Sequence record: PZ445457.1
DNA: 39,466 bases
Origin: a phage
Direction: 5' to 3' (one strand)
This document shows positions 7,452 to 35,261 of the stretch, piece after piece (positions within the stretch are counted from its first letter, which is position 1; every line of letters starts with the position of its first letter). Both the position numbers and the translations under genes were made by a program. Under the pieces are notes generated by a model. The model did not search any database. It had not been told where the DNA came from and saw nothing but the letters and a program-made list of their open reading frames with translations.

Positions 7452-7498
7452 GCTCACACAGCTTCCCTCTATCCAACACATTCGAAAGGAGGCTACAG

Positions 7499-9979: not shown

Positions 9980-9990
9980 TGGTAATACTC

Positions 9991-10014: not shown

Positions 10015-10077
10015 TATGAATTATCAACACAACTCACGGTGACTCTACGTGAAATCTGAGAAATGGGGAGGGTAGTT

Positions 10078-10519: not shown

Positions 10520-11077
10520 ATGTCTACTGTAAACTCAAGAACCCGTACAATCTGGACTATCAATGGTCGCTCACCGGACAGCCGCGATATGTACGACCGA
10601 AACAATGTTGGCCTTCGTGTTGGGCGTATCGACATCCCGGCTTCAGAAATGGTCAAGGTAGATGGATACGACAAGGTTGAGTATGTGGTCCAACTGAGTG
10701 ATGGTACAACCGAGCAACATGCTACCTTTGAGATCCTGATGTCCACTTGGGGTGGCTCCGTCGAGTCTAAACCGGGTAGTGGGTTCATGACGGTATTCCT
10801 GAATGAGCAAAGCGCTGAGCGGCTCGGTATGGTTCGAATCGACGTATACAAAGAGTGGACTGGTGCCGACCCTGAACCAGAAGGTGGTTCTGCTTCGTTA
10901 GTTAGTGCAGCGCTTTCTGCGTCTGATAGTGCATTTGGTACACAGTTCGTGGATAGCGAAGGAAAGAGCGCTTCCGTTATGTTCCAACCTAGTAACATCG
11001 ACGGGGCTGTATCTAAGACCGACACTATCAAGGCTCTTGAGAAGCGAATCGCTGCTTTAGAGAAACCTACCGAGTAA
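10520..11077 (+). CDS. Hypothetical protein (185 aa), lineage-specific insertion between 18.5 and terminase large subunit; no recognisable motifs
   Basis: Strong RBS taaggag 7 nt upstream, natural-looking composition, no Cys/His motifs, C-terminal amphipathic helix KTDTIKALEKRIAALEK. No T7 counterpart at this position that I recall. Confidence 0.7.
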   Translation: MSTVNSRTRTIWTINGRSPDSRDMYDRNNVGLRVGRIDIPASEMVKVDGYDKVEYVVQLSDGTTEQHATFEILMSTWGGSVESKPGSGFMTVFLNEQSAERLGMVRIDVYKEWTGADPEPEGGSASLVSAALSASDSAFGTQFVDSEGKSASVMFQPSNIDGAVSKTDTIKALEKRIAALEKPTE

Positions 11078-11092: not shown

Positions 11093-12853
11093 ATGTCGCA
11101 ATCCCAAGAAGCTAAGAATGCGCTCATCATTGCGCAACTTAAGGGTGACTTCGTGGCCTTCCTGTTCGTCTTATGGAAGGCTCTGAACTTACCTAAACCA
11201 ACCAAGTGTCAGATTGATATGGCACGTACACTCGCTAATGGCGACCACAAGAAGTTTATCCTACAGGCGTTCCGTGGTATCGGGAAGTCCTTTATCACCT
11301 GTGCGTTCGTCGTGTGGGTGCTATGGCGTGACCCTCAATTGAAGATACTCATCGTGTCTGCCTCCAAGGAACGTGCTGATGCTAACTCCATCTTCATCAA
11401 GAACATTATCGACCTCCTTCCGTTCCTCTCTGAGTTGAAACCTCGACCGGGACAGCGAGACTCCGTGATTAGCTTCGATGTGGGATTGGCTAAACCAGAC
11501 CACTCTCCCTCTGTGAAGTCTGTAGGTATCACTGGTCAGTTGACTGGTAGCCGTGCTGACATCATTATCGCAGATGACGTTGAGGTTCCCGGTAATAGCT
11601 CTACGAGTTCTGCCCGTGAGAAGCTCTGGACGTTGGTAACTGAGTTTGCTGCATTACTTAAGCCGCTGCCTACCTCTCGTGTTATCTACCTTGGCACACC
11701 TCAAACTGAGATGACGCTCTACAAGGAACTTGAGGATAACAAAGGGTACAGCACAGTAATCTGGCCGGCACAGTATCCTCGTAACAATGCTGAGGCTCTC
11801 TACTATGGGGACCGCTTGGCTCCGATGCTTAAGGCTGAATACGATGAAGGCTATGAGTTACTTCGTGGTCAACCTACTGACCCTGTTCGATTCGACATGG
11901 ATGACCTCCGTGAGCGTGAACTCGAATATGGTAAAGCTGGCTACACTCTTCAGTTCATGCTTAACCCGAACCTTAGTGATGCCGAGAAGTACCCGCTACG
12001 ACTCCGTGACGCTATCGTGTGCGCTGTGGACCCTGAACGTGCCCCATTGTCTTACCAGTGGTTGCCGAACCGTCAGAACCGCAATGAGGAACTCCCTAAC
12101 GTTGGTCTGAAGGGTGATGACATCCATGCGTTCCATACGTGCTCTTCTCGTACCGCTGAGTATCAGTCTAAGATTCTGGTCATTGACCCAAGTGGTCGTG
12201 GTAAGGATGAGACCGGGTATGCAGTCCTCTACTCACTGAACGGTTACATCTACCTGATGGAAGTCGGAGGGTTCCGTGGTGGCTACGATGATGCTACCCT
12301 AGAGAAGCTCGCTAAGAAGGCCAAGCAGTGGAAGGTACAGACAGTCGTCCACGAGTCCAACTTCGGTGACGGTATGTTCGGTAAGATTTTCTCTCCGATT
12401 CTCCTGAAGCACCATAAGTGTGCCTTAGAGGAAATCCGTGCTAAGGGCATGAAGGAGATGCGAATCTGCGATACTATCGAGCCGTTGATGGGTGCACACA
12501 AGCTGGTCATTCGTGATGAGGTTATCCGTGAGGACTACCAGACTGCTCGTGACCTTGATGGGAAACATGATGTCCGCTACAGTGCGTTCTATCAGATGAC
12601 CCGTATGACCCGTGAGCGAGGCGCTGTGGCACACGATGACCGCATTGATGCTATCGCATTGGGTATCGAGTTCCTTCGTGAAGGGATGCTTGTGGACAGC
12701 CGTGTAGGTGAAGAAGAGATGACCCTTGAGTTCCTTGAACACCACATGGAGAGACAGACCATTGGTGGTGATGCTATCCATAGCTACGAGGCTGGTGGCG
12801 TAGACATCTACTACGAGGACGATGGAGACTCTAGCTGCTTCATTGAGTGGTAA
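11093..12853 (+). CDS. gene 19: Terminase large subunit gp19 (586 aa)
   Basis: [34 protein letters not shown]... essentially collinear with recalled T7 gp19; ATPase and nuclease regions conserved. Confidence 0.97.
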
Positions 12854-12940
12854 TAGATAAGTATGCGGGAAAGGTGCATAGGTAAGCACTTAGTACCGCT
12901 ACGTTACCGTTAAGTAACTTACTGATATACATGAAGAAAT

Positions 12941-12963
12941 TAATACGACTCACTATTGGGAAG
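12941..12963 (+). promoter_or_regulatory. Phage RNAP promoter (phiOR-like), upstream of gene 19.5
   Basis: taatacgactcactattgggaag. Confidence 0.8.
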
Positions 12964-13120
12964 GGCACCCTAAGACAACTTAAAGACACTTAAAGACTGC
13001 ATATGCAAAGTGCATACTTAATGACTAACTCTTAGAGACCCTTACAGTGAGGGATGATGGTAATAGTAATTACATCCCTACTATCAGTGTAACCATCAAG
13101 TATAACAAGGAGGACGCTCT

Positions 13121-13276
13121 ATGCGCTTACTATCCGTACTCAAGACACTGGCAACGCATCGAGTGACTTACAAATTTCTCGTTGTACTTGCTGCTTCCAC
13201 TGGTCTCGCATCTAGTGCTGAACACATCGGTGAACTGGAGACTCTGCTTTGTTCTCTACTCACTTGTGTTCCTTAG
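13121..13276 (+). CDS. gene 19.5: gp19.5-like small membrane protein (51 aa)
   Basis: MRLLSVLKTLATHRVTYKFLVVLAASTGLASS...LLCSLLTCVP resembles recalled T7 gp19.5; RBS aaggagg upstream; below the track 60-aa cutoff. Confidence 0.65.
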   Translation: MRLLSVLKTLATHRVTYKFLVVLAASTGLASSAEHIGELETLLCSLLTCVP

Positions 13277-13738: not shown

Positions 13739-13868
13739 CTTTGAGTCATCACCTTATGTTTCCTCTTTGAGTCATCACCTTATGTTTCCTCTTTGAGTCA
13801 TCACCTTATGTTTCCTCTTTGAGTCATCACCTTATGTTTCCTCTTTGAGTTAACACCTTATGACCTCC
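13739..13868 (+). repeat. Tandem direct repeat, 26-bp unit ctttgagtcatcaccttatgtttcct, 4 exact copies plus 1 degenerate
   Basis: Directly visible at 13739-13842 with a diverged fifth copy to 13868; positionally analogous to the T7 left-end repeat array just inside the terminal repeat. Confidence 0.9.
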
Positions 13869-16581: not shown

Positions 16582-16606
16582 AAGGTCGGCACTCACTGCT
16601 GGCCTT
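16582..16606 (+). promoter_or_regulatory. RNA hairpin, candidate RNase III site (R1-like), between 0.7 and gene 1
   Basis: aaggtcggc-actcact-gctggcctt; stem with G-U pairs. Confidence 0.45.
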
Positions 16607-16639: not shown

Positions 16640-19288
16640 ATGAACGTAATCAACGCACCAAAGAATGACTTCTCTGACATCGCTAACGCAATCCAGCCGT
16701 ACAACATTCTGGCTGACCATTACGGCGCACAGCTTGCAGCTACACAGCTTGAATTGGAACATGAAGCACACACTGAGGGCGAGAAGCGTTTTCTTAAGGC
16801 GATGGAACGTCAAATCAAAGCTGGTGAGTTCGGTGATAACGCAGTGGCTAAACCGCTCCTGTCATCCCTCGCACCGAAGTTCATCGAAGCGTGGAACACT
16901 TGGTTCACTGAGGTGGAAGCGAAGCGTGGTAAGCGTCCAGTAGCCTACAATCTGGTACAGAAGGTTGCACCCGAAGCTGCTGCTTTCATCACACTGAAGG
17001 TCACACTGGCTTGCTTGACGAAAGAAGAGTTTACCAACCTGCAATCGGTCGCAACTAAGATTGGTCGCAGTATTGAGGATGAACTGCGTTTTGGTCGCAT
17101 CCGTGACGAAGAAGCGAAGCACTTTAAGAACCACGTACAGGAGGCACTGAACAAGCGCGTTGGTATCGTTTACAAGAAAGCATTCATGCAAGCCGTAGAA
17201 GGCAAGATGTTAGACGCTGGTCAACTGCAAACCAAGTGGACTACATGGACACCTGAAGAATCAATTCACGTTGGTGTGCGCATGTTGGAACTGCTCATTG
17301 GCTCTACTGGTCTCGTTGAGTTACACCGACCGTTTGCTGGTAACGTTGAGAAGGATGGCGAGTACATCCAACTGACCGAACAATACGTTGACCTGTTATC
17401 TAAGCGTGCTGGTGCACTGGCTGCAATTGCTCCGATGTACCAACCATGTGTAGTTCCTCCGAAGCCTTGGACTTCTCCGGTCGGTGGTGGCTATTGGGCT
17501 GCTGGTCGCAAGCCTCTCTCTCTGGTTCGTACTGGTTCCAAGAAGGGACTTGAGCGTTACAACGATGTGTATATGCCTGAAGTCTACAAGGCGGTGAACA
17601 TCGCACAGAATACTCCTTGGAAGATTAACAAGAAGGTTCTGGCAGTGGTCAACGAGATTGTGAACTGGAAGCATTGCCCGGTTGAAGATGTACCTGCTCT
17701 GGAACGTGGTGAACTGCCTGTCAAACCTGATGACATCGACACCAACGAGGCATCACTCAAAGCGTGGAAGAAAGCGGCCTCCGCAATCTACCGCAAAGAG
17801 AAGGCACGAGTGTCACGCCGCATGAGCATGGAGTTCATGTTAGGTCAGGCCAATAAGTTCGCACAGTTTAAAGCTATCTGGTTCCCGATGAACATGGACT
17901 GGCGCGGTCGAGTGTATGCGGTCCCAATGTTTAACCCGCAAGGCAACGACATGACCAAAGGCTTGCTGACGCTCGCTAAAGGTAAACCAATCGGTGTCGA
18001 TGGGTACTACTGGCTGAAGATTCACGGTGCGAACACTGCTGGTGTGGACAAGGTGGACTTTGCTGAGCGCATCAAGTTCATTGATGACAACCACGAGAAC
18101 ATCATGAGCGTAGCGGCTGACCCGATTGCTAACACTTGGTGGGCTGAACAAGACTCTCCGTTCTGCTTCCTCGCGTTCTGCTTTGAGTATGCGGGAGTCC
18201 AGCACCACGGGATGAACTACAACTGCTCTCTACCTCTGGCGTTCGATGGCTCTTGCTCCGGTATTCAGCACTTCTCCGCGATGCTCCGTGATGAGGTTGG
18301 TGGTCGTGCGGTTAACCTGCTGCCGAGCAAGGAAGTACAGGACATCTACCGCATCGTTGCTGAACGTGTGAACGAGATGCTCCGCGAAGCGGTAGTCAAC
18401 GGCACTGATAACGAAGTGGAAACCGTGACAAACAAGGACACCGGAGAAATCACTGAGAAGCTCAAGCTGGGAACGAAAGAGTTAGCTGGTCAGTGGCTGG
18501 CCTACGGTGTGACTCGCAAGGTCACTAAGCGTTCGGTCATGACGTTGGCTTACGGCTCCAAAGAGTATGGCTTCCGCGACCAAGTTCTTGAGGACACCAT
18601 TCAGCCAGCTATCGACGATGGCAAGGGATTGATGTTCACTCAACCGAACCAAGCGGCTGGCTACATGGCTAAACTGATTTGGGAATCGGTAACGGTCACA
18701 GTTGTCGCAGCGGTTGAAGCGATGAACTGGTTGAAGTCTGCTGCTAAACTTCTGGCTGCTGAAGTCAAGGACAAAAAGACTAAAGAAGTCCTCCGCAAGC
18801 GTTGCGCAGTACATTGGGTTACTCCTGATGGCTTCCCGGTATGGCAGGAATACAAGAAGCCAGTACAGACCCGCTTGAATCTGATGTTCTTAGGCCAGAT
18901 TCGTCTACAGCCTACCGTGAACACCAACAAGGATAGCGGGATTGATGCTCGTAAACAGGAGTCAGGCATCGCACCTAACTTTGTCCACTCAATGGATGGA
19001 AGCCACCTGAGAATGACTGTAGTGCGCTCCAATGAGGTCTACGGTGTGGAATCCTTCGCACTGATTCATGACTCCTTTGGCACTATCCCGGCTGATGCTG
19101 GCAACCTGTTTAAAGCAGTGCGTGAAACGATGGTCAACACTTACGAAGAGAACGATGTACTTGCAGACTTCTATGAGCAATTTGCTGACCAGTTGCACGA
19201 GACACAGCTTGATAAGATGCCTGAGATGCCAGCTAAAGGCTCTCTGGACCTGCAAGAAATCCTTAAGTCAGACTTTGCGTTTGCCTAA
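16640..19288 (+). CDS. gene 1: DNA-directed RNA polymerase, single-subunit T7-type (882 aa)
   Basis: Collinear with recalled T7 RNAP: motif A PLAFDGSCSGIQHF, motif C ALIHDSFGT, specificity-loop region QPTVNTNKDSGIDARKQESGIAPNFVHS, C-terminus SDFAFA. Confidence 0.98.
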   Translation: MNVINAPKNDFSDIANAIQPYNILADHYGAQLAATQLELEHEAHTEGEKRFLKAMERQIKAGEFGDNAVAKPLLSSLAPKFIEAWNTWFTEVEAKRGKRPVAYNLVQKVAPEAAAFITLKVTLACLTKEEFTNLQSVATKIGRSIEDELRFGRIRDEEAKHFKNHVQEALNKRVGIVYKKAFMQAVEGKMLDAGQLQTKWTTWTPEESIHVGVRMLELLIGSTGLVELHRPFAGNVEKDGEYIQLTEQYVDLLSKRAGALAAIAPMYQPCVVPPKPWTSPVGGGYWAAGRKPLSLVRTGSKKGLERYNDVYMPEVYKAVNIAQNTPWKINKKVLAVVNEIVNWKHCPVEDVPALERGELPVKPDDIDTNEASLKAWKKAASAIYRKEKARVSRRMSMEFMLGQANKFAQFKAIWFPMNMDWRGRVYAVPMFNPQGNDMTKGLLTLAKGKPIGVDGYYWLKIHGANTAGVDKVDFAERIKFIDDNHENIMSVAADPIANTWWAEQDSPFCFLAFCFEYAGVQHHGMNYNCSLPLAFDGSCSGIQHFSAMLRDEVGGRAVNLLPSKEVQDIYRIVAERVNEMLREAVVNGTDNEVETVTNKDTGEITEKLKLGTKELAGQWLAYGVTRKVTKRSVMTLAYGSKEYGFRDQVLEDTIQPAIDDGKGLMFTQPNQAAGYMAKLIWESVTVTVVAAVEAMNWLKSAAKLLAAEVKDKKTKEVLRKRCAVHWVTPDGFPVWQEYKKPVQTRLNLMFLGQIRLQPTVNTNKDSGIDARKQESGIAPNFVHSMDGSHLRMTVVRSNEVYGVESFALIHDSFGTIPADAGNLFKAVRETMVNTYEENDVLADFYEQFADQLHETQLDKMPEMPAKGSLDLQEILKSDFAFA

Positions 19289-19295
19289 CGGAATC

Positions 19296-19318
19296 TAATA
19301 CGACTCACTATTGGGAGC
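19296..19318 (+). promoter_or_regulatory. Phage RNAP promoter (phi1.1A-like)
   Basis: taatacgactcactattgggagc, followed by gggagccttcgggcttcc stem-loop. Confidence 0.8.
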
Positions 19319-19377
19319 CTTCGGGCTTCCTAAACTTTAAGATACTTTAAGTTCTAACTTTAAGAGGAAACACAATC

Positions 19378-19935
19378 ATGTTTACTTTAATCACTTCAGT
19401 AGGCGCTCTCGTATCAACCATTCTTGCAGCAACATACTATAATCGTTCAAAGGTATTTCTCACTAAGCTAATCAAAGAAGAGAAGAACTCTCATGCACTC
19501 AAAGAGAGACTTGAAGATGGATGGCGAGAGAAGCAGGAACTAGCTGGTCGAATCCGTACCTTAGAGTTCGAACAACAATATGACATGTCGAACCAACGAG
19601 AACTCATTGAGCGTCTACGCGCTGAGGCAGTGGAGTACCGCAAGGAACTTAAAGAGGCAAAGAGTACCATCCGTGAGTACACTCACAGTGACATCACGTC
19701 TATCAAGTTTACTGCACACATACCGGATGATGGATGGAAGCGCACTGAGTTCAAGCTGGGTCTTGGCTCGTGCGGTAAGCAAGTCACCTGCCTACATTGG
19801 GTGGAACAAGCCGACCGCTACCTGCTGACGCAGACGTGCACTGATGGTGAGCGCAAAGAGTTCACCTATTATAAGAAAGATGTAGCGGGTCGCATTGAGA
19901 TTGCACGTAAGGTTGCAGACAATACGACTCACTAA
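19378..19935 (+). CDS. Hypothetical membrane-anchored coiled-coil protein (185 aa), in the slot between gene 1 and gene 1.1 (T3 gene 1.05-like position)
   Basis: RBS gagga plus repeated ctttaag motifs upstream; N-terminal TM helix MFTLITSVGALVSTILAATYY, central charged coiled-coil, Cys-containing C-terminal domain. T7 has no gene here as I recall. Confidence 0.7.
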   Translation: MFTLITSVGALVSTILAATYYNRSKVFLTKLIKEEKNSHALKERLEDGWREKQELAGRIRTLEFEQQYDMSNQRELIERLRAEAVEYRKELKEAKSTIREYTHSDITSIKFTAHIPDDGWKRTEFKLGLGSCGKQVTCLHWVEQADRYLLTQTCTDGERKEFTYYKKDVAGRIEIARKVADNTTH

Positions 19936-19942
19936 TGGGAAA
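19920..19942 (+). promoter_or_regulatory. Phage RNAP promoter (phi1.1B-like), embedded in the 3' end of the 19378..19935 ORF
   Basis: caatacgactcactaatgggaaa; the ORF terminal codons N-T-T-H-stop are encoded by the promoter itself. Confidence 0.75.
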
Positions 19943-19950
19943 CACTGAAA

Positions 19951-19993
19951 GTTAAACTCAAGGTCATCACAATTGGTGGCCTTCATGATTAAC
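19951..19993 (+). promoter_or_regulatory. Conserved hairpin element, candidate RNase III site (R1.1-like)
   Basis: gttaaactcaaggtcatcacaattggtggccttcatgattaac; 10-bp upper stem aaggtcatca/tggtggcctt plus flanking lower stem; one of three near-identical copies. Confidence 0.5.
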
Positions 19994-20026
19994 TGTCATT
20001 AACTACACACAAAAGGAAACAACATT

Positions 20027-20176
20027 ATGCGTACCAACTTTGAACCAACCACTAAGCGCAACAACGTAATCAATGAACACGGTGCTGAATGGCAGGAACG
20101 TAAAGACCGCATGAAGAAACGCCACAAGACACAGCGTGGCAACGCTGAGAAACGCAACTGGAAGGAGGCACTCTAA
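20027..20176 (+). CDS. gene 1.1: gp1.1-like small basic protein (49 aa)
   Basis: MRTNFEPTTKRNNVINEHGAEWQERKDRMKKRHKTQRGNAEKRNWKEAL; RBS aaaaggaaa; resembles recalled T7 gp1.1 in size and character; stop overlaps gene 1.2 start. Confidence 0.6.
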   Translation: MRTNFEPTTKRNNVINEHGAEWQERKDRMKKRHKTQRGNAEKRNWKEAL

Positions 20177-20448
20177 TGGGTCGCTTATACAGTGGTAACT
20201 TAATGGCGTTCAAGGATGCCATCGCGAGACTTAAAGAAGACCACGATGTGAGTGTGGTCGTTGAGACTTTCCGCTATGAGAACTATGCGAGGATGCGCTG
20301 GGTATCCGGTGAGACTCTTCGAGTGGTCTTGCGGAATGGCTTAGTGTTAACCTCCAAGTGTTTCGAACAGGACGATGAAGACGTTCGCTGCAATGCACAG
20401 ACTGAATGGCTTCGTAAGGTACACAGTGACCTGAAGCACTGGAAGTAA
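20176..20448 (+). CDS. gene 1.2: gp1.2, inhibitor of host dGTP triphosphohydrolase (90 aa)
   Basis: MGRLYSGNL.AFK...DEDV...WL...DLK.WK matches recalled T7 gp1.2 N- and C-termini. Confidence 0.8.
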   Translation: MGRLYSGNLMAFKDAIARLKEDHDVSVVVETFRYENYARMRWVSGETLRVVLRNGLVLTSKCFEQDDEDVRCNAQTEWLRKVHSDLKHWK

Positions 20449-20468
20449 TACGACTCACTATTGCGAAA
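20446..20468 (+). promoter_or_regulatory. Phage RNAP promoter (phi1.3-like; +2 C variant)
   Basis: taatacgactcactattgcgaaa. Confidence 0.6.
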
Positions 20469-20470
20469 GA

Positions 20471-20513
20471 GTTAAACTAAAGGTCATCTATACGGTGGCC
20501 TTTGTGATTAACT
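20471..20513 (+). promoter_or_regulatory. Conserved hairpin element, candidate RNase III site (R1.3-like)
   Basis: gttaaactaaaggtcatctatacggtggcctttgtgattaact; second copy of the element family. Confidence 0.5.
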
Positions 20514-20549
20514 TTTGTTTACTTAATAACCAACAATAGGAGTTCCATC

Positions 20550-21569
20550 ATGGAAATCACATTCAAGACTAACCCTTTTAAAGCTGTATCCTACGTTGAG
20601 TCTGCCATTAAGAAAGCACTCGACAAAGCTGGCTACCTGATTGCTGACACTAAGCATGATGGTGTACGTGGTAACATCGTGGTTGACAATACGGCTGACT
20701 GCCTGTGGCTATCCCGTGTCTCCAAGACCATCCCCGCGCTTGAGCACCTTAATGGGTTCGACCAACGCTGGGCTAATGTTCTCAAAGATGACCGCTGGAT
20801 TTTCCCTGATGGCTTCATGCTTGATGGTGAACTGATGGTCAAAGGCGTAGACTTCAACACAGGGTCTGGCCTACTGCGTACCAAGTGGCTCAAGAAGACA
20901 AACTGTGGATTTGATATTGGTGGAGTAGAGCCTCTCAAGGGGAGTAAAGTAGACTTCTGCTTAGACCCTAAGAAACTTAAGGTTGTCCTATATGCTGCTA
21001 TGCCATATCACGATATGATAGAAGGCAAAGAGTATGGCGTTATGTCCCTCCTGATGCAAGAGCATGTGCGTTCCCTCATTCCGGTTCTTAGTGAACACTT
21101 CCCGGAAATCACTTGGGAACTATCTGAGGCCAAAGAAGTCTACGACATGGTAGAACTTCAGGAACTCTACGAGAAAGCTCGCGCTGATGGGCATGAAGGT
21201 CTTGTCGTCAAAGACCCGCTGGAAGTCTACAAGCGAGGCAAGAAGTCTGGCTGGTGGAAGATGAAGCCTGAGAATGAAGCTGATGGTATCATCGTTGGTA
21301 TCAATTGGGGGACTAAAGGTCTCGCTAATGAAGGCAAAGTGATTGGCTTTGAGGTTCTCTTGGAGTCCGGTCGTGTAGTTAACGCCAACAACATTAGTCA
21401 AGAGTTGATGAATGAGTTCACTAACACAGTGAACATTGAGGGTGCTACCTTCTACAATGGACATCAATGTCAGGTAGCCTACATGGAGGAAACTCCTGAT
21501 GGTTCTCTGCGTCACCCATCGTTCGTTATGTTCCGTGGTGTCGAGTCAGACCCAACGGTCAAGATGTAA
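20550..21569 (+). CDS. gene 1.3: ATP-dependent DNA ligase gp1.3 (339 aa)
   Basis: Adenylation motif KHDGVRG; ...WLSRVSKTIPALEHLNGFD..., GFMLDGELMVKGVDFNTGSGLLRTKW, SGWWKMKPENEADGII, MEETPDGSLRHPSFVMFRG match recalled T7 ligase. Confidence 0.97.
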   Translation: MEITFKTNPFKAVSYVESAIKKALDKAGYLIADTKHDGVRGNIVVDNTADCLWLSRVSKTIPALEHLNGFDQRWANVLKDDRWIFPDGFMLDGELMVKGVDFNTGSGLLRTKWLKKTNCGFDIGGVEPLKGSKVDFCLDPKKLKVVLYAAMPYHDMIEGKEYGVMSLLMQEHVRSLIPVLSEHFPEITWELSEAKEVYDMVELQELYEKARADGHEGLVVKDPLEVYKRGKKSGWWKMKPENEADGIIVGINWGTKGLANEGKVIGFEVLLESGRVVNANNISQELMNEFTNTVNIEGATFYNGHQCQVAYMEETPDGSLRHPSFVMFRGVESDPTVKM

Positions 21570-21579
21570 ATAAATCAAC

Positions 21580-21614
21580 GGTCAGTCCTTAGCGGGGCTG
21601 GCCTTTTTGCGTTT
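21580..21614 (+). terminator. Rho-independent terminator (TE-like early terminator) after the ligase gene
   Basis: ggtcagtcc-ttagc-ggggctggcc stem (with G-U pairs) followed by tttttgcgttt. Confidence 0.6.
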
Positions 21615-21636
21615 CTATACGACTCACTATGGAGGA
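21615..21636 (+). promoter_or_regulatory. Degenerate phage promoter-like sequence (one nt short around the start site)
   Basis: ctatacgactcactatggagga; upstream half conserved, initiation region deviates. Confidence 0.4.
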
Positions 21637-21644
21637 ACAACCTC

Positions 21645-21725
21645 ATGCTATTTCTTATTGCTGCTGTTATCTTTGCCACGTTCGCCTTCGTTATCATTGA
21701 CGACAACTGCTGGCCTGATTGCTAA
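21645..21725 (+). CDS. Hypothetical hydrophobic peptide (26 aa)
   Basis: RBS ggagga 8 nt upstream; MLFLIAAVIFATFAFVIIDDNCWPDC; T7 gene 1.4/1.5 region. Confidence 0.3.
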   Translation: MLFLIAAVIFATFAFVIIDDNCWPDC

Positions 21726-21745
21726 TACGACTCACCTATGGAGGA
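21723..21745 (+). promoter_or_regulatory. Degenerate phage promoter-like sequence
   Basis: taatacgactcacctatggagga; -17 to -5 perfect, -4 to +4 diverged. Confidence 0.35.
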
Positions 21746-21752
21746 AACACTT

Positions 21753-22016
21753 ATGTTACGACTACACTTCAACAAATCAAATGGCATCTTCTCTGCCCGT
21801 GGCGCTGACCGTTCAACCGTTCTGGCCTCTGAGAAACATGCAGTCATCCCTAAAGTGCTTGGCTCGACCATTGAGTTAGCACCTCGTGTTCATGCTGTAA
21901 TCACCACTGGCTTATATAAAGAAGCGACCACTGGCTCCCGGCCTTTCATTCCGGTTCTCGTCACCCGTTTCCCTAAAGTCCGTCTGGTAATTGCGCGTAT
22001 CAAGGAGGTGTTCTAA
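21753..22016 (+). CDS. gp1.6-like protein (87 aa)
   Basis: ATG after RBS ggagga; MLRLHFNKSNGIFSARGADRS...; assigned by position and size in the gene 1.6 slot. Confidence 0.6.
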   Translation: MLRLHFNKSNGIFSARGADRSTVLASEKHAVIPKVLGSTIELAPRVHAVITTGLYKEATTGSRPFIPVLVTRFPKVRLVIARIKEVF

Positions 22017-22327
22017 TGGTCTGCATGGCATGTTTAGAGAATGATGACCGCTACCCACATACCTGTGAACCTGTAGCTAAACCACAAGATATAGAGGGTG
22101 TTCGCAAGCCGAGCCACTATATGTTGTTTGATGACATTGAGGCTATCGAAGTGATTGCCCGTTCGATGACCCGTGAACAGTTCAAAGGTTACTGCTTAGG
22201 GAACATCCTTAAGTATCGCCTACGTGCTGGGAAGAAATCCGAACTGGCATTCTTAGAGAAGGACATGGCGAAAGCTGGGTTCTATGGTGAACTGTACGAG
22301 AAACATAAGGACAAGTGCCATGCTTAA
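22016..22327 (+). CDS. gene 1.7: gp1.7-like protein, short form (103 aa) of the T7 nucleotide kinase
   Basis: CLENDDRYPHTC and KPSHYMLFDDIEAIEVIARSMTREQFKGYCLGNILKYRLRAGKKSELAFLEKDMAKA match recalled segments of T7 gp1.7 (about 196 aa); central region absent. Confidence 0.8.
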   Translation: MVCMACLENDDRYPHTCEPVAKPQDIEGVRKPSHYMLFDDIEAIEVIARSMTREQFKGYCLGNILKYRLRAGKKSELAFLEKDMAKAGFYGELYEKHKDKCHA

Positions 22328-22427
22328 TGACATTCTGTATTTTGTACTCATCTGTGCTGGAATGGGTACACTACTTCGTTTAATGTATTGGGCTATAGAG
22401 GTGGAATATGGTAAAACCAAGTGAATG
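22320..22427 (+). CDS. Hypothetical small membrane peptide (35 aa), gene 1.8 position
   Basis: ATG overlapping the 3' end of gene 1.7; MLNDILYFVLICAGMGTLLRLMYWAIEVEYGKTK. Confidence 0.3.
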
Positions 22428-22502
22428 GTGTGAACGTATGTTCGAAAAGACGGGCAACGTTGACTATCTCGAAATGTATAACTATTGGAAAGGGAAAGGA
22501 CT

Positions 22503-22694
22503 ATGAGCAACTTAAACAAAGGGTCACTAGTAAACGGTGACAAGAAGTTCTTCGCAACGGTCGAAGGCCAAGGCCAATCGTTCGAAGTCCCTGTGTTCGC
22601 TGCGTCTCTTGAAGAGGCCAACGAGTTAGCTGAATGGCAGTATGTTCCGGCTGGCTTCGCAGTGACACGCATCCGTCCAGACCGAAAGGTTTAA
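22503..22694 (+). CDS. gene 2: gp2, inhibitor of host RNA polymerase (63 aa)
   Basis: [59 protein letters not shown] matches recalled T7 Gp2; start is an internal ATG of the 22485 track ORF. Confidence 0.9.
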
Positions 22695-22714
22695 TAGGAC
22701 TCACTATTGGGAGA
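22692..22714 (+). promoter_or_regulatory. Phage RNAP promoter (phi2.5-like; -12 G variant)
   Basis: taataggactcactattgggaga. Confidence 0.7.
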
Positions 22715-22763
22715 CACATCGTTTCCCAACTTTTAACTTTCAGAAACTTTAAGGAGAAACATC

Positions 22764-23462
22764 ATGGCTTTCAACAAACGTAAAGTATTCACTTCCGCTC
22801 GTGGCGTTGCTGAACCATACTGCTATCTGGCTAAACCGGACTTCGGTAGCGGTGACTTCAAGAACGAACGCGGTGTCTACAAGGTGTCACTTACTGTATC
22901 CAACGACGACCCTCGCTGTCAGAAAATGATTGACGAGATTGTCGAAGCCCATGAAGCGGACTATGCTGCTCGTCTCGAAGAGTATGAAGCGAACCCGCCG
23001 AAAGTTGTCAAGGGTAAGAAACCGCTGAAGCCGTATGTTGGCGACATGCCTTTCATGGATAACGAAGACGGAACCACTACGTTCAACTTCAAGTGCTACG
23101 GCTCGTTCACTGACAAGAAGACTGGTGAGAACAAACCAATCGACTTGGCTATCGTGGACTCCAAGGGCAAGCGCATTCGTGGCGAACGTCCAGCTATCTC
23201 TGGCGGCTCTGAACTGAAAATCAAATACACCCTGTTCCCTTATGGCTGGTCTGCTGTGGCTGGTGCATCCGTTAAGCTGCAACTGGATTCTGTGATGCTG
23301 ATTAAGCTGGTCGAGTTCGGCGGTGGTGATGATGATTGGGGTGATGAAGTCGAAGAAGACGGTTATGTAGCTGATGAAGCACAGACCCGCACGCCGCAGA
23401 ACGACTCTGGCTGGGACGAAGAACCAGAAGAGGACGATGAAGACGAAGACGGTGACTTCTAA
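22764..23462 (+). CDS. gene 2.5: Single-stranded DNA-binding protein gp2.5 (232 aa)
   Basis: Collinear with recalled T7 gp2.5; acidic C-terminal tail ending ...DEDEDGDF with terminal Phe. Confidence 0.97.
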   Translation: MAFNKRKVFTSARGVAEPYCYLAKPDFGSGDFKNERGVYKVSLTVSNDDPRCQKMIDEIVEAHEADYAARLEEYEANPPKVVKGKKPLKPYVGDMPFMDNEDGTTTFNFKCYGSFTDKKTGENKPIDLAIVDSKGKRIRGERPAISGGSELKIKYTLFPYGWSAVAGASVKLQLDSVMLIKLVEFGGGDDDWGDEVEEDGYVADEAQTRTPQNDSGWDEEPEEDDEDEDGDF

Positions 23463-23908
23463 TGGCTAAGGGTTATGCAGGTCGAGGCACTCGTGTGGGT
23501 GCCTTTCGCTCTGGCTTGGAGGATAAGGTAAGCAAGCAACTCGAAGGGAAGAACATTAAGTTCGACTACGAGCGTTGGCGTGTACCATATGTTGTTCCTG
23601 CAAGCAACCATACCTATTGCCCGGACTTCCTGTTACCTAATGGCATCTTTGTGGAAACAAAGGGTCTGTGGGATAGTGACGACCGCAAGAAACACTTACT
23701 GATTCGTGAACAGTATCCTGAACTTGATGTGCGCATCGTGTTCTCTTCTAGTCGCTCCAAGCTGTACAAAGGGTCTCCGACCAGTTATGGCGAGTGGTGT
23801 GAGAAGCATGGCATTCTGTTTGCTGACAAATTAATTCCAGTTGATTGGCTTAAAGAGCCTTCTAAGGATGTTCCATTCGATAAATTTAAAGAGGTGAAGA
23901 AGAAATGA
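23462..23908 (+). CDS. gene 3: Endonuclease I (Holliday junction resolvase) gp3 (148 aa)
   Basis: VGAFRSGLEDKVSKQLE...PASNHTY.PDFLLPNGIFVETKGLW.SDDRKKHLLIREQ matches recalled T7 gp3. Confidence 0.97.
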   Translation: MAKGYAGRGTRVGAFRSGLEDKVSKQLEGKNIKFDYERWRVPYVVPASNHTYCPDFLLPNGIFVETKGLWDSDDRKKHLLIREQYPELDVRIVFSSSRSKLYKGSPTSYGEWCEKHGILFADKLIPVDWLKEPSKDVPFDKFKEVKKK

Positions 23909-24360
23909 GTAAGGTACAATTCAAACCACGCGCTGTGACAGAAGCAATCTTTGTGCACTGTAGCGCAACTAAGGCGACCATGAACGTGGGTCTGCGTGAA
24001 ATCCGTCAGTGGCATAAAGAACAGGGCTGGCTTGATGTAGGCTACCACTTCATTATTCGCCGCGATGGTACAATCGAAGAAGGCCGTCCGGTCGATGTCG
24101 TTGGGTCTCACGTTAAGGACTGGAACAGTAAGTCAGTCGGTGTGTGCCTCGTTGGTGGTATCGACGATAAGGGCAGACACGAAGCTAACTTTACGCCAGC
24201 ACAGATGCACTCTCTGAAAGAGAAACTTGCAGACCTGCTGGACATGTATCCAGATGCTGAAGTGAAAGCTCACCATGACGTTGCACCTAAAGCGTGTCCG
24301 TCTTTCAACTTGAGTCGCTGGCTGAAAACTGGCGAATTAGTAACTAGTGATTGGGGTTAA
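23905..24360 (+). CDS. gene 3.5: N-acetylmuramoyl-L-alanine amidase (T7 lysozyme) gp3.5 (151 aa)
   Basis: AIFVHCSATK...REIRQWHKEQGWLDVGYHFII.RDGT...SIGVCLVGGIDDKG...ANFTPAQM...HH.VAPKACPSF matches recalled T7 gp3.5. Confidence 0.97.
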   Translation: MSKVQFKPRAVTEAIFVHCSATKATMNVGLREIRQWHKEQGWLDVGYHFIIRRDGTIEEGRPVDVVGSHVKDWNSKSVGVCLVGGIDDKGRHEANFTPAQMHSLKEKLADLLDMYPDAEVKAHHDVAPKACPSFNLSRWLKTGELVTSDWG

Positions 24361-24365
24361 ACACT

Positions 24366-24458
24366 ATGATGATTATTCACGAGATGGGCCTGTACGATTT
24401 GATTTATCGCCTCGCGTTCATGCTGGCAATGGTCTACATTCTGACCCGCAAGGATTAA
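24366..24458 (+). CDS. Hypothetical small hydrophobic peptide (30 aa)
   Basis: MMIIHEMGLYDLIYRLAFMLAMVYILTRKD; between lysozyme and primase genes; no strong RBS. Confidence 0.25.
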   Translation: MMIIHEMGLYDLIYRLAFMLAMVYILTRKD

Positions 24459-24478
24459 TAGAACTCACTATGGGAGGA
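24456..24478 (+). promoter_or_regulatory. Degenerate phage promoter-like sequence (phi3.8/phi4-like)
   Basis: taatagaactcactatgggagga; deviates at -12/-11 and is one nt short before GGGA. Confidence 0.4.
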
Positions 24479-24528
24479 CCGAAAGGTTTCTCCCTTTGTT
24501 CGCTAAAATTGTATAAGGAGTAACCACT

Positions 24529-26338
<1,810 letters not shown>

Positions 26339-26403
26339 TAGCAATTGGGTAGACCAGTGGGAAGAACTGAACGAGCGCGAACAGGCGCTCTACAGAAAGC
26401 AAT

Positions 26404-26426
26404 CAATACAACTCACTAATGGGACA
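26404..26426 (+). promoter_or_regulatory. Phage RNAP promoter (phi4.3-like; -11 A variant)
   Basis: caatacaactcactaatgggaca, followed by a 5' stem-loop (acaga-cac-tctgt). Confidence 0.6.
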
Positions 26427-26469
26427 GACACTCTGTTCCCACTTATCAATCCACTTAAGGAGAATCACA

Positions 26470-26682
26470 ATGTTTAAATTCATCAACACTCTTGGTAAGC
26501 TGGTAGTTAAAATGTACTTCCGTGAAGCTAAACGTCTGAACGACAAGGCACGTAAGGATGCAGAACAGGCTCAACGCTTGGCGAAACAGGCACGTCTACT
26601 GTCTGAAGATGCAAGTGCTGGCGTTACGTCTGCTGCTAAGATTGCAGCGAAAGCAACCGACCTGAACAAGTTCTTCCTGTAA
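26470..26682 (+). CDS. gene 4.3: gp4.3-like protein (70 aa)
   Basis: MFKFINTLGKLVVKMYFREAKRLNDKARKDAEQ... resembles recalled T7 gp4.3; RBS taaggag. Confidence 0.75.
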   Translation: MFKFINTLGKLVVKMYFREAKRLNDKARKDAEQAQRLAKQARLLSEDASAGVTSAAKIAAKATDLNKFFL

Positions 26683-26861
26683 TGGTTACGATAACCCTTG
26701 TGCTCACTCTGATAACTGTGAGCGGACAAACAATAAGTCAAGTCCCTATCACGGCACCAAAGGCTGAGGCATACGAGATATGCGAACAGCAAGGGCGCTC
26801 GTGGTCTAAGGACTTGATGAAGAACGGCAGGGTTTTCACTGCCAACTACAACTGTATCTAA
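26682..26861 (+). CDS. Hypothetical small protein with signal-peptide-like N-terminus (59 aa)
   Basis: ATG overlaps upstream stop (taatg); MVTITLVLTLITVSGQTISQVP... hydrophobic N-terminus then polar domain with 2 Cys. Confidence 0.45.
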   Translation: MVTITLVLTLITVSGQTISQVPITAPKAEAYEICEQQGRSWSKDLMKNGRVFTANYNCI

Positions 26862-26875
26862 TAGGAGTACACAAC

Positions 26876-27178
26876 ATGGCTATTAAATTCCCCGGCAACA
26901 CAATCCGTCTGTCTGACACCATCGACCAGTATGCTCGCCGAGTGCACATCAACGTTCGCAACGGCAAGGTAACTCTGGTCTATCGCTGGAAGGACAGTAA
27001 GTCCACCAAGGCGCACACACAGCGTGTGACTCTGGATGACACACAGGCAGGTCGTCTGCTGGCCTCCGTTGCTGTAGCTGCTACTGTGGCTGTAGGTGAA
27101 GACAATGTTCGTCAGGTTCTGCTGGGTAAGACAGTAGAGTCTGAGGGCAACATGCTTGCTGACAAGTGTGAAGAGTAA
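26876..27178 (+). CDS. Hypothetical protein (100 aa), gene 4.5/4.7 region
   Basis: RBS taggag; ORF in the + strand operon context; no motif recognised. Confidence 0.6.
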   Translation: MAIKFPGNTIRLSDTIDQYARRVHINVRNGKVTLVYRWKDSKSTKAHTQRVTLDDTQAGRLLASVAVAATVAVGEDNVRQVLLGKTVESEGNMLADKCEE

Positions 27179-27180
27179 GA

Positions 27181-27223
27181 GTTAAACTAAAGGGCATCTA
27201 CATGGTGGCCTTCGTGATTAACT
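27181..27223 (+). promoter_or_regulatory. Conserved hairpin element, candidate RNase III site
   Basis: gttaaactaaagggcatctacatggtggccttcgtgattaact; third copy of the element family. Confidence 0.5.
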
Positions 27224-27234
27224 TTTGTATGGAA

Positions 27235-27257
27235 TCTATTCAACTCACTAATGGGAG
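27235..27257 (+). promoter_or_regulatory. Degenerate phage promoter-like sequence
   Basis: tctattcaactcactaatgggag; -10 to +4 conserved, AT-rich upstream part diverged. Confidence 0.3.
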
Positions 27258-27265
27258 AACAACAC

Positions 27266-27445
27266 TATGCGTAATCGTAATGTAATCGAAGCTGAAATCG
27301 CTAAACTGGAAGCTGAACTGGCAGACGTTAAAGAGTATGAATGTGCTCGTGATTCTGCGGTACACATCCTGAAGAACTTAGGGTGGACTCGTGTTCGCGG
27401 TAAGTGGGGTGAAACCTACCAAGGCAAACACCAAGCTGTTCGATA
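27266..27445 (+). CDS. Hypothetical protein (59 aa)
   Basis: MRNRNVIEAEIAKLEAELADVKEYE... short coiled-coil then basic tail; below track cutoff. Confidence 0.4.
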
Positions 27446-27453
27446 AGGACACC

Positions 27454-27666
27454 ATGACCCACATTAAGGCTGGTGACTTCTGCGCATCAACTGAGACATC
27501 CTCTCTATGGTACGTGCGCGCTGTCGCTGGCAACATCTGCTGGTGCTCACGAGTGTCCCGCATTGCTCCTAATGGAACCTTAGTAACCAGCAACAACGTT
27601 GGCATCAAAGCTGAGAACCTGAAGGTAATCAACGTGAAAGACTATATGGGATACACCCATCGTTAA
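27454..27666 (+). CDS. Hypothetical protein (70 aa)
   Basis: Internal ATG of track ORF 27391..27666 preceded by taaggac; immediately upstream of DNA polymerase. Confidence 0.45.
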   Translation: MTHIKAGDFCASTETSSLWYVRAVAGNICWCSRVSRIAPNGTLVTSNNVGIKAENLKVINVKDYMGYTHR

Positions 27667-27685
27667 ACTTTAAGGAGTAAACACA

Positions 27686-29800
27686 ATGTTACTATCCGAC
27701 ATCGAAACAAACGGGTTGCTGCACAACGTTAGTCAATTTCACTGTGCGGTGACTTACGACTACACAACTGACCAGTACATCCGTTACCGACCTGATGACT
27801 TTGGGGCATACATTGATGCACTCGAAGCCGAGGTTGCTCGTGGTGGTCTCATTGTGTTCCACAACGGTCACAAGTATGACGTTCCTGTTATCGAGAAGCT
27901 GGCGAAGCTGATTCTGAATCGTGACGTTAAGTTCCCGAAAGAGAACGTCTTGGACACCTTAGTGATGTCCCGACTGATTTACTCTAACATCAAAGACACT
28001 GATGCTGGTCTGCTGCGTTCTGGCAAGCTGCCGGGTAAACGCTTTGGCTCTCACGCTCTTGAGGCGTGGGGCTACCGCTTAGGCGAAATGAAGGGTGAGT
28101 ACAAGGACGACTTTAAGAAGTCACTGGAAGAGTCTGGTGATGAATACGAAGAGGGGATGGAGTGGCTGTTCTTCAACGAAGACATGATGGAGTATAACGT
28201 TCAAGACGTTGTAGTTACCAAGGCACTCTTTGAGAAACTGTGTAGTAACACTTTCTATTTCCCGAACGAGACACCCGCTGGAAGCACAGAAGCAGAACGT
28301 TTCTGGAACGGTAGCCTTGAGGCTGTCAAGCTGGAACATGATGCTGCTTGGTTGTTAGCTAAGATGGAACGTAACGGTTTCCCTATTGACATCAAGTCCT
28401 TAGAGAATCTTTACGCTGAACTAGCTGGTCGCCGTGGTGAACTTCTGGTCGAACTGACCAACACTTTCGGTTCGTGGTATCAGGCCAAGGGTGGCGTTGA
28501 GGCGTTCCGTCATCCGAGAACTGGTAAGCCGCTCACTAAGTATCCTCGTGTGAAGTATCCGAAACAGGGTGGCATATTTAAGAAGCCAAAGAACAAGAAG
28601 CAACGTGAAGGTCTGGAACCTTGTGAACTGGACACTCGCGATTATGTAGAGGGCGCTCCGTATACGCCTGTAGAGCACGTTGTGTTTAACCCTGCAAGTC
28701 GTGAACACATCACCCGTGTGCTTACCAAAGCTGGATGGGTTCCCGTTGAGTTCACTCCGAGTGGTGCACCAAAGGTAGACGATGAGGTATTGGAACACGT
28801 TAAGGTAGACGACCCGGATGCACAGCGTTGCATTGAGTTGATTAAAGAATACCTTATGATTCAGAAACGTATCGGTCAGGTTGCTGAAGGTGATAACGGC
28901 TGGCTCCGAATGATTGGAGACGATGGTCGTATTCACGGTAGCGTTAACCCGAACGGTGCGGTAACTGGACGTGCAACTCATAGTTTCCCTAACGTGGCAC
29001 AGGTGCCTTCAATCCGTGCTGCATATGGTGAACCTTGCCGTGCTGCTTTCGGTGCCGAGCACAACATGAAAGACGGTAAGCCAGACCCTTGGATTCAAGT
29101 TGGTGTGGATGCGTCCGGCCTTGAGCTACGCTGCTTGGGTCACTTCATGTATCGCTATGATGAGGGAGAGTACGTTGAGACCATCCTCACTGGTGACATC
29201 CATACGAAGAACCAATTGGCTGCGGGTCTACCGACTCGTGACAACGCTAAGACGTTTATCTATGGGTTCCTCTATGGTGCTGGTGCTGCGAAGATTGGAC
29301 AGATTGTTGGTGGTACTGCCGAAGATGGTAAGCGCCTCATCAAGAACTTCCTTGAGCAAACTCCGGCTATCGCTGCGTTGCGTGAAGCAATCACAGGTAC
29401 ACTCGTCAAGGACTCTAAGTGGGTTGGCGGTGAACAGAAAGTAACTTGGAAACGCCGTTGGGTTCGTGGCTTGGATGGTCGTAAAGTACACGTCCGTAGT
29501 CCCCACGCTGCGTTGAACACCTTGTTGCAATCTGCTGGTGCTCTGATTTGTAAACTGTGGATTGTAGAGACTGAGCGTCTGTTACTGGAAGCTGGCCTGA
29601 AGCATGGCTGGGATGGTGACTTTGCGTACATGGCTTGGGTCCACGACGAAATTCAGGTAGCTGCTCGTACACAAGAGATTGCCGATAAGATTGTCAAGTT
29701 GGCACAACAAGCGATGCGTAATGTGGGAGACCACTTTAACTTTAGATGTCAGTTAGATACCGAAGGTAAGACTGGCGCAAACTGGAAAGATTGTCACTAA
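27686..29800 (+). CDS. gene 5: DNA polymerase gp5 (704 aa), family A with 3'-5' exonuclease
   Basis: Exo motif SDIETNGL; thioredoxin-binding region; pol motifs YGFLYGAG and HDEIQV; collinear with recalled T7 gp5. Confidence 0.98.
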   Translation: MLLSDIETNGLLHNVSQFHCAVTYDYTTDQYIRYRPDDFGAYIDALEAEVARGGLIVFHNGHKYDVPVIEKLAKLILNRDVKFPKENVLDTLVMSRLIYSNIKDTDAGLLRSGKLPGKRFGSHALEAWGYRLGEMKGEYKDDFKKSLEESGDEYEEGMEWLFFNEDMMEYNVQDVVVTKALFEKLCSNTFYFPNETPAGSTEAERFWNGSLEAVKLEHDAAWLLAKMERNGFPIDIKSLENLYAELAGRRGELLVELTNTFGSWYQAKGGVEAFRHPRTGKPLTKYPRVKYPKQGGIFKKPKNKKQREGLEPCELDTRDYVEGAPYTPVEHVVFNPASREHITRVLTKAGWVPVEFTPSGAPKVDDEVLEHVKVDDPDAQRCIELIKEYLMIQKRIGQVAEGDNGWLRMIGDDGRIHGSVNPNGAVTGRATHSFPNVAQVPSIRAAYGEPCRAAFGAEHNMKDGKPDPWIQVGVDASGLELRCLGHFMYRYDEGEYVETILTGDIHTKNQLAAGLPTRDNAKTFIYGFLYGAGAAKIGQIVGGTAEDGKRLIKNFLEQTPAIAALREAITGTLVKDSKWVGGEQKVTWKRRWVRGLDGRKVHVRSPHAALNTLLQSAGALICKLWIVETERLLLEAGLKHGWDGDFAYMAWVHDEIQVAARTQEIADKIVKLAQQAMRNVGDHFNFRCQLDTEGKTGANWKDCH

Positions 29801-34150: not shown

Positions 34151-34170
34151 TACGACTCACTAATGGGAGA
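34148..34170 (+). promoter_or_regulatory. Phage RNAP promoter (phi9-like)
   Basis: ttaatacgactcactaatgggag overlapping the gene 8 stop. Confidence 0.8.
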
Positions 34171-34222
34171 GACACCACGTCCTCCCTTTGAGTTCAAACT
34201 TTAATTGAAGGAGATTACAATT

Positions 34223-35137: not shown

Positions 35138-35160
35138 TAATACGACTCACTATTGGGAGA
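35138..35160 (+). promoter_or_regulatory. Phage RNAP promoter (phi10-like), full consensus match
   Basis: taatacgactcactattgggaga followed by 5' stem-loop gggaga...tctccc and a leader containing ttaaactttaa plus RBS aaggag. Confidence 0.85.
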
Positions 35161-35261
35161 GACATTACGTTCTCCCACTTTGAGTGATACACAATGAGAA
35201 CCAACTCGTTTCAAGTAGTACCTCACACATTAAACTTTAAATCAACAGAAGGAGATTCAAC

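Follow-up and report, generated by a model that had tools for sequence, protein, structure and literature searches.

Three near-identical intergenic hairpins of a T7-family phage as very probable R1.1, R1.3, and R4.7 RNase III processing sites

Sequence record PZ445457.1, 39,466 bases in length and referred to here as the window (the whole stretch of DNA that was analyzed), is a complete T7-family phage genome, circularly permuted with respect to the usual T7 map. Three of its intergenic spaces, between positions 19951 and 27223, carry near-identical hairpin elements, here called E1, E2, and E3. All long open reading frames (ORFs) lie on the + strand in T7 gene order, an order that agrees with T7, T3, and Escherichia phage BA14, and gene identities were assigned by synteny with annotated relatives. 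T7-type promoters (ATACGACTCACTA..GGGA) are present in 16 copies in the genome, and three of these, phi1.1, phi1.3, and phi4.7, adjoin the elements. The genes, promoters, and elements at the locus, with lengths in nucleotides (nt) or base pairs (bp), are as follows.

16640-19288, + strand: gene 1 (RNA polymerase)
19378-19935, + strand: gene 1.05
19920-19942, + strand: promoter phi1.1, from the promoter repeat family; BA14 annotates phi1.1 at the homologous place; transcripts start about 9 nt before E1
19946-19998, + strand: E1, R1.1 orthologue; lower stem, 4/5-nt internal loop (ACUC / CAUGA), 10-bp upper stem, 4-nt loop; covariance-model score, 67.5 bits
19951-19993, + strand: consensus match in E1 (43 nt)
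20027, + strand: start of gene 1.1
20176, + strand: start of gene 1.2
20446-20468, + strand: promoter phi1.3, from the promoter repeat family and the BA14 record; transcripts start 4 nt before E2
20467-20516, + strand: E2, site at the R1.3 position; hairpin with a nearly closed internal loop; 63.8 bits
20471-20512, + strand: consensus match in E2 (42 nt)
20550, + strand: start of ligase gene 1.3
26876-27178, + strand: gene 4.5
27176-27227, + strand: E3, R4.7 orthologue; hairpin with a G.G mismatch in the upper stem; 58.7 bits
27181-27222, + strand: consensus match in E3 (42 nt)
27234-27256, + strand: promoter phi4.7, from the promoter repeat family; BA14 annotates phi4.7; downstream of E3
27686, + strand: start of gene 5

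Sequence, fold, and position of the three elements

Written with a variable loop, the consensus GTTAAACT.AAGG.CATC(4-7 nt)GGTGGCCTT..TGATTAAC has exactly three exact matches in the window, all on the + strand, and none in 100 dinucleotide-preserving shuffles, which bears out the three near-identical elements proposed in a first-pass annotation of this DNA. The length of about 43 bp given there is right for E1, while for the 42-nt E2 and E3 the proposed ends, 20513 and 27223, lie one base too far. A pattern with a fixed 6-nt loop and up to three mismatches matched E1 only, because the loops of E2 and E3 have 5 nt rather than 6. A repeat finder independently returned E2 and E3 as a 52-nt direct repeat (20467-20518 and 27177-27228) that is 92% identical and stops at the base of the hairpin.

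Folding of the RNA, suggested at the outset as a check on the elements, gives -18.1 kcal/mol for E1, -20.8 for E2, and -17.1 for E3 on the + strand, with z scores against shuffles of -4.1, -5.1, and -3.1, respectively, whereas the reverse complements (z of -0.85 to -1.2) fold no better than shuffled sequence. This asymmetry between the strands is due to G.U pairs, and the signal is therefore one of RNA structure on the transcribed strand. The shared plan comprises a lower stem of 6 to 10 pairs, an internal loop, a 10-bp upper stem, and an apical loop of 4 to 5 nt, in agreement with the 10-bp upper stem with G-U pairs and flanking lower stem originally described. Two U.G wobbles are found in the upper stem of both E1 and E2, and a G.G mismatch is found at position 5 in that of E3. 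Position 27194 is G in E3 and T in the R4.7 site of BA14, which places G.G where the conserved U.G wobble stands and makes E3 the weakest fold of the three.

The internal loop is asymmetric (4/5 nt) in the centroid folds of E1 and E3, as well as in those of the R1, R18.5, and R0.3 orthologues described below. In E2, A-U, U.G, and C-G pairs close most of it and leave one bulged U, so that the helix runs almost without a break for about 22 bp. The asymmetric loop typical of T7-group sites is accordingly present in E1 and E3 and partly so in E2.

With respect to transcription, E1 lies between phi1.1 and gene 1.1 and occupies +10 to +62 of phi1.1 transcripts, and E2, beginning at +5 of phi1.3 transcripts, comes between phi1.3 and ligase gene 1.3. 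E3 is situated between gene 4.5 and phi4.7, its 5' arm overlapping the stop codon of gene 4.5; phi4.7 transcripts begin downstream of E3 and do not contain it, so that only read-through transcripts carry it. T7 R1.1, R1.3, and R4.7 occupy the same intergenic slots relative to phi1.1, phi1.3, phi4.7, and genes 1.1, 1.3, 4.5, and 4.7.

The T7 sites have the same construction (lower stem, 4/5-nt internal loop, 10-bp upper stem, and small loop), share the RNA core ACUCAAGGUC...GUGGCCUUyAUGAUU (in DNA, the core CAAGGTC..GTGGCCTT.ATGA is common to both), and keep the U.G wobbles at the same upper-stem positions. Outside the loop, however, they are only 47-68% identical to the window sites, and their lower-stem sequences differ through compensatory changes. 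The three T7 sites are 51-60% identical to each other, compared with 75-91% among the three in the window, and T7 has a second promoter, phi1.1B, after R1.1 that the window genome does not have. RNase III features are absent from the T7 records NC_001604 and V01146. In T3, annotated R1.1 (NC_003298, 6003-6053) has the same GAGUUAAACU.AAGGUCAUC...GGUGGCCUU.GUGAUUAACUUU sequence and is 83-85% identical to E1 and E2. This sequence type occurs in T3 at R1.1 and R0.5 only, whereas T3 R1.3 and R4.7 are of other types and 58-70% identical to those of the window.

Closer relatives are numerous. The region 19500-21500 has matches in 369 phage records, with 94-96% identity to BA14, vB_CECAV_058, and PhiV-1, and the top matches are Escherichia phage BA14 (96%), Salmonella phage vB_CECAV_058, PhiV-1, 285P, and Kluyvera phage Kvp1. 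All of the best-matching relatives are Studiervirinae, and the BA14 and Kvp1 records give the genus as Berlinvirus. Homologous hairpins, 87-100% identical and with freely differing apical loops, are found at the same positions in the Berlinvirus phages BA14, Kvp1, 285P, and BSP161. Outside the loop, E1 is 100% identical to R1.1 of BA14 and Kvp1 and 83% identical to annotated T3 R1.1, and E3 is 92% identical to BA14 R4.7. The exact variant is present in three copies in several genomes in IMG/VR.

RNase III sites of T7 have been textbook material since the 1970s and 1980s, and they form a homologous family of their own, in which the internal loop directs a single cut. Cellular and lambda substrates of the same enzyme, such as rRNA precursor stems, the rnc and pnp leaders, and the lambda N leader, likewise offer about two turns of double-stranded RNA, but they have no sequence homology to T7-group sites, and many are fully paired and cut on both strands. 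E1, E2, and E3 are of the already-known phage kind, that is, orthologues of the classic T7/T3 RNase III processing sites. Position, core sequence, strand-specific structure on the + strand, and the T3 model test given below lend computational support to the processing-site reading first put forward, and we consider it very likely that E1, E2, and E3 serve this T7-family phage as its RNase III processing sites R1.1, R1.3, and R4.7.

A covarying family and its members in the genome

Two related hairpins, at 16582-16606 and 9991-10014, had been listed beside E1, E2, and E3 in the first-pass annotation as simpler AAGG...CCTT stems. Both exist, yet neither is simpler: each has a lower stem, an internal loop, and an upper stem, as E1, E2, and E3 do, and is therefore a full member of the family. 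At the 9991 hairpin, moreover, the 3' arm reads GGTCTT and not CCTT. All five hairpins do fall where they had been placed, in the intergenic positions of T7 R1, R1.1, R1.3, R4.7, and R18.5. Together with two sites missing from that list, the members outside the three elements are as follows.

9977-10029, + strand: R18.5 orthologue, between gene 18 (+ strand, ends 9979) and gene 18.5 (+ strand, starts 10063); -17.8 kcal/mol, z -4.2; 56.8 bits
14564-14616, + strand: R0.3 orthologue, upstream of gene 0.3 (+ strand, starts 14638); -16.6 kcal/mol, z -4.3; 57.2 bits
16565-16624, + strand: R1 orthologue, between genes 0.7 and 1; full two-tier hairpin; -21.6 kcal/mol, z -4.9; 53.2 bits
31513-31607, + strand: diverged R6.5-type site, a less certain assignment; -35.1 kcal/mol, z -5.4; weak partial model hit only, 9.8 bits

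The hairpin at 16582 sits in the same slot as T7 R1 and annotated T3 R1, and the upper stem of the R18.5 orthologue is identical to that of T7 R18.5. The R0.3 orthologue has the architecture of E1, E2, and E3 and is homologous to T7 R0.3 and annotated T3 R0.3. Less certain is the R6.5-type site, which aligns with T7 and T3 R6.5 and combines the family's lower stem and internal loop with a long upper stem whose loop holds promoter phi6.5, an arrangement also found in T7 and T3. In the first upper-stem pair, U-A has replaced A-U (UAGG/CCUA instead of AAGG/CCUU), and the hairpin forms only on transcripts reading through from upstream. The family in this genome consists of at least six and probably seven RNase III sites.

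An alignment of 13 sequences, namely, the six window hairpins and seven T7 sites, served to build a covariance model. In it the core ACUCAAGG...CCUUyAUGA is conserved, and the flanking lower-stem arms differ between sites yet stay complementary. The common structure pairs 93% of cells, against 30-53% when partners are slid, and compensatory changes occur in 13 of the 19 pairs; none of 500 shuffles reaches any observed measure. The lower stem is marked by covariation (eight of nine pairs across the family) rather than by sequence conservation.

Searched over the whole window with filters off, the model returns exactly six strong matches (53-67 bits), all on the + strand, the next being at 14.7 bits. 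As these six were training sequences, the real test is T3, which lay outside the training set. Here 8 of the 10 stem-loops annotated "RNase III recognition site" were recovered one-to-one (R0.3, R0.5, R1, R1.1, R1.3, R4.7, R6.5, and R18.5), with no extra match. T7 R6.5, also outside the training set, was recovered as well. The two annotated T3 sites that the model did not find, R3.8 and R13, are promoter-proximal hairpins of a different type. Apparent counterparts of both are seen in the window, again of another structural class than E1, E2, and E3 and unlisted in the earlier annotation: an R3.8-like 5' hairpin directly after promoter phi3.8 (24472-24494, + strand; GGGAGGACC..GGUUUCUCCC; z -2.2) and an R13-like hairpin enclosing promoter phi13 (64-117, + strand; z -5.7), upstream of gene 13 (+ strand, starts 138). 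T3 differs from the window genome in having an R0.5 site; the covariance-model search found no R0.5 equivalent in the window, and BA14 and Kvp1 are likewise without one.

In BA14 the model finds the same six sites as in the window, and in Kvp1 it finds five, with no match for R4.7. For the corresponding Kvp1 region (12690-13150), the record has a gene 2.8 (homing endonuclease) ORF reaching up to promoter phi4.7, and genes 4.3 and 4.5 are not annotated in it.

The covariation holds beyond the training sequences. In an independent set of 39 non-training matches from T3, BA14, Kvp1, and 14 IMG/VR loci, pairing extends to 92.5% of cells (28-56% when partners are slid), with compensatory changes at 15 of the 19 pairs. 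Of 32 distinct sequences, 28 retain the U.G wobble at upper-stem position 5. Close relatives hardly differ in their stems, and their apical loops are free in sequence and length, which is the pattern expected of a substrate recognized through its helix. E1, E2, and E3 are members of a sequence family with a strand-specific fold, covariation, positional orthology, and homology to annotated T3 sites. A search of the whole window against Rfam at gathering thresholds gave no match, nor did one of 19900-20560 at E ≤ 1, and Rfam appears to lack a family of such sites.

Predicted processing and alternative readings

In T7 R1.1, an asymmetric internal loop (4 nt/5 nt) interrupts the hairpin, and cleavage takes place in vivo as well as in vitro at a single primary site (PMC6121014); RNase III cleavage is documented at this and other T7 sites (PMC6938266, PMC6121014). 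The internal loop restricts the enzyme to a single phosphodiester, and the 3' hairpin that remains protects the processed RNA from 3'-to-5' exonucleases (PMC1540722). In an R1.1 variant that is fully paired, the enzyme cuts both strands (PMC1540722).

By analogy with T7, RNase III cleavage in this phage, the exact bond cut, and the effects on mRNA stability and translation can be predicted for E1, E2, and E3. All phage genes would be transcribed rightward into long polycistronic RNAs, and each element would fold within them into about two helical turns, with lower stem, asymmetric internal loop, and 10-bp upper stem. Host RNase III would bind this helix, read the conserved A-A-G/C-U-U pairs (the proximal box) beside the loop, and make a single-strand cut on the 3' side of the internal loop; only one strand would be cut because the loop interrupts the helix. 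The upstream mRNAs (gene 1 and 1.05; genes 1.1-1.2; genes 4.3-4.5) would thereby be left with the stable upper hairpin at their 3' ends as a shield against 3'-to-5' exonucleases, and the downstream mRNAs (genes 1.1-1.2; ligase gene 1.3; genes 4.7-5) would gain a new 5' end. E2 may be cut on both strands, since its internal loop is nearly closed and the fully paired R1.1 variant is cut in this manner.

The cuts are predicted within ..CCUUyrU^GAUUAAC, at 19986/19987 in E1, 20505/20506 in E2, and 27215/27216 in E3, and the corresponding bonds would be 16609/16610 in R1, 10017/10018 in R18.5, and 14605/14606 in R0.3. The T7 cut coordinates used for comparison are those reportedly given by Dunn and Studier in 1983; at every site compared except R1.3, these coordinates fall at ..CCUUnnU^G/A, three bases past the upper stem.

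According to published rules for the proximal box, positions 1-3 act as positive determinants, the pair at position 2 being A-U, and catalysis is blocked by G-C or C-G at position 4. AAG/CUU is invariant or nearly so in the aligned sites (A-U in 13 of 13, G-C in 13 of 13), and position 2 is A-U everywhere. Position 4 reads C.C in E1, A-U in E2, and A.C in E3, and it is never G-C or C-G in any site.

Several points weigh against reading E1, E2, and E3 as processing sites. The predicted cut positions depend on the T7 coordinates attributed to Dunn and Studier and are only indirectly consistent with the 47- and 13-nt products reported for R1.1 (PMC6121014). The loop geometry of E2 departs from the canonical 4/5 loop, and the G.G mismatch in the upper stem of E3 may lower its reactivity. 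Rfam apparently offers no family against which the elements could be matched, and RNase III sites are not mentioned in the BA14 record, the Kvp1 record, or the Kvp1 genome paper; a literature search on BA14 plus RNase III likewise returned nothing. Finally, T7 grows without RNase III (PMC6938266), which means that such sites adjust expression and are not essential, and that their selective value is indirect.

The features just named in E2 and E3 are also those that could favor functional hairpins without cleavage, which would act as passive barriers to 3' exonucleases or bind RNase III only and in this way tune the stability or translation of neighboring cistrons. Such hairpins would be expected to show the same strand-specific, covarying structure, the altered loop of E2 and the G.G mismatch of E3 could change reactivity, and substrates that bind RNase III yet resist cleavage are documented (PMC1540722). 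Nevertheless, the features required for cleavage are conserved (position 2 is A-U, and position 4 is neither G-C nor C-G), and the elements share homology with T7 sites known to be cut in vivo, as well as 83-85% identity with annotated R1.1 of T3. We regard this explanation as very unlikely for the elements together; binding without cutting is a small possibility mainly for E3, given its G.G mismatch.

It is highly improbable that the elements act at the DNA level, as short mobile or recombination cassettes or as protein-binding inverted repeats, with the RNA fold being incidental. The 92% identical 52-nt direct repeat of E2 and E3 that ends at the hairpin base, the mosaic distribution of site types among positions and genomes, and the fact that the lower stems are inverted repeats would all suit such a function. 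However, the stems need G.U pairs, so that the reverse strand or a DNA cruciform is much weaker (z of about -1), one U.G wobble is kept in 28 of 32 sequences, the lower stems covary in 8 of 9 pairs, and synteny of the positions extends across genera. On all of these grounds a DNA-level function was rejected. A host-derived dispersed repeat or mobile element was also rejected: no exact motif match exists in 185,579 bacterial and archaeal species genomes, and the matches in IMG/VR, with one to three copies per sequence, lie in genomes the size of T7 (about 36-40 kb) or in short fragments of contigs.

A role as terminators or pause sites in transcription by the host or phage RNA polymerase is barely conceivable. 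In its favor, the hairpins are stable and intergenic, and a somewhat U-rich stretch (ACUUUUGU) follows E2 and E3. Against it, the G+C-rich upper stem leads into the internal loop and lower stem and not into a U tract, the U-rich bases are paired in the lower stem, and essential downstream genes depend on read-through. A scan of 19000-28000 calls no terminator at E1, E2, or E3 and finds the early terminator TE at 21580-21603, after the ligase gene. An intrinsic terminator was rejected for the absence of a scan call, the location of TE elsewhere, and the pairing of the U-rich bases.

Exchange of sites between positions and genome context

RNase III processing sites of the R1.1, R1.3, and R4.7 type remain our strongly preferred reading of E1, E2, and E3, and their close resemblance to each other is a trait in which this lineage departs from T7 and T3. 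Outside the loops, R1.3 and R4.7 are 91% identical in the window and 87% identical in BA14, compared with 58% in T3 and 51% in T7. The window R1.3 (E2) is 94% identical to BA14 R1.3 and 85% identical to T3 R1.1, but only 58% identical to T3 R1.3 and 47% identical to T7 R1.3, and both R1.3 and R4.7 of the window are closer to T3 R1.1 than to their own positional counterparts. Between T3 and T7, in contrast, most sites, including R1, R1.3, R6.5, and R18.5, are mutual best matches by position. T3 R4.7, like the window sites, departs from this in being closest to T7 R0.5. These alignments of site identity span 53 columns only.

The lower stems are free to covary across the family, and for this reason their identity in E1, E2, and E3 is likelier to reflect copying than convergence. 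As far as comparison of the sequences goes, this suggests that recombination or gene conversion in this lineage has exchanged hairpins among positions, which we propose as a hypothesis. Two IMG/VR loci, L011 (3300045988_000100) and L012 (2974585177_000001), encode a gp1.2 that is 88% identical to that of the window and is flanked by R1.1/R1.3 hairpins of the T7 type and not of the Berlinvirus type; a mosaic junction seems to lie in or near the intergenic hairpins of these loci. With the chances for and against evenly balanced, Berlinvirus sites could be copyable cassettes, R1.3 and perhaps R4.7 having been overwritten by, or converted to, an R1.1-type copy via short-homology recombination; more generally, T7-like phages would shuffle site types among positions and not strictly inherit them in place. 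Such copying, if true, would result in three near-identical sites in one genome.

Further features of the genome were observed alongside. A short hairpin directly follows many phage promoters, starting from transcript +1 and of the GGGAGA...UCUCCC type, which gives 5'-terminal stem-loops on phage RNA polymerase transcripts. These promoter-adjoining hairpins are found at the following positions.

7445-7467: short +1 hairpin, GGGAGA...UCUCCC type
22708-22729: same type
26420-26442: same type
34164-34186: same type
35154-35176: same type

Downstream of E3 and phi4.7, gene 4.7 (27267-27666) is split into overlapping ORFs at 27267-27446 and 27391-27666. Relative to the single 138-amino-acid gene 4.7 of BA14, it shows a 1-base insertion and then a 12-base deletion near 27405-27420, with the sequence downstream diverged. 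Gene 2.8, an endonuclease gene located in BA14 between genes 4.7 and 5, is absent from this genome. The region of genome ends and the concatemer junction, between phiOR (12945) and phiOL (14082), contains five tandem 26-bp units at 13739-13868 (CTTTGAGTCATCACCTTATGTTTCCT), the fifth of which is diverged. In the tail-fiber gene 17 (7499-9466), four diverged repeats of about 105 bp lie at 7995-8398, the last interval being 126 bp. Between genes 18.5 and 19, a 185-amino-acid ORF (10520-11077) corresponds to a homologous position labeled "unknown product" in BA14, and T7 and T3 have no gene there.

The apparent homogenization of sites across positions is the only modestly new point, the rest being biologically expected, and the value of the sites identified here lies mainly in annotation, as the BA14 and Kvp1 records label promoters and terminators and not RNase III sites. 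The covariance model finds the sites cleanly, so that the mRNA processing map is transferable to the whole group. Sites of this kind define the mature ends of phage mRNAs and affect mRNA stability, and knowing them is useful for modeling and engineering the expression of T7-like phages.

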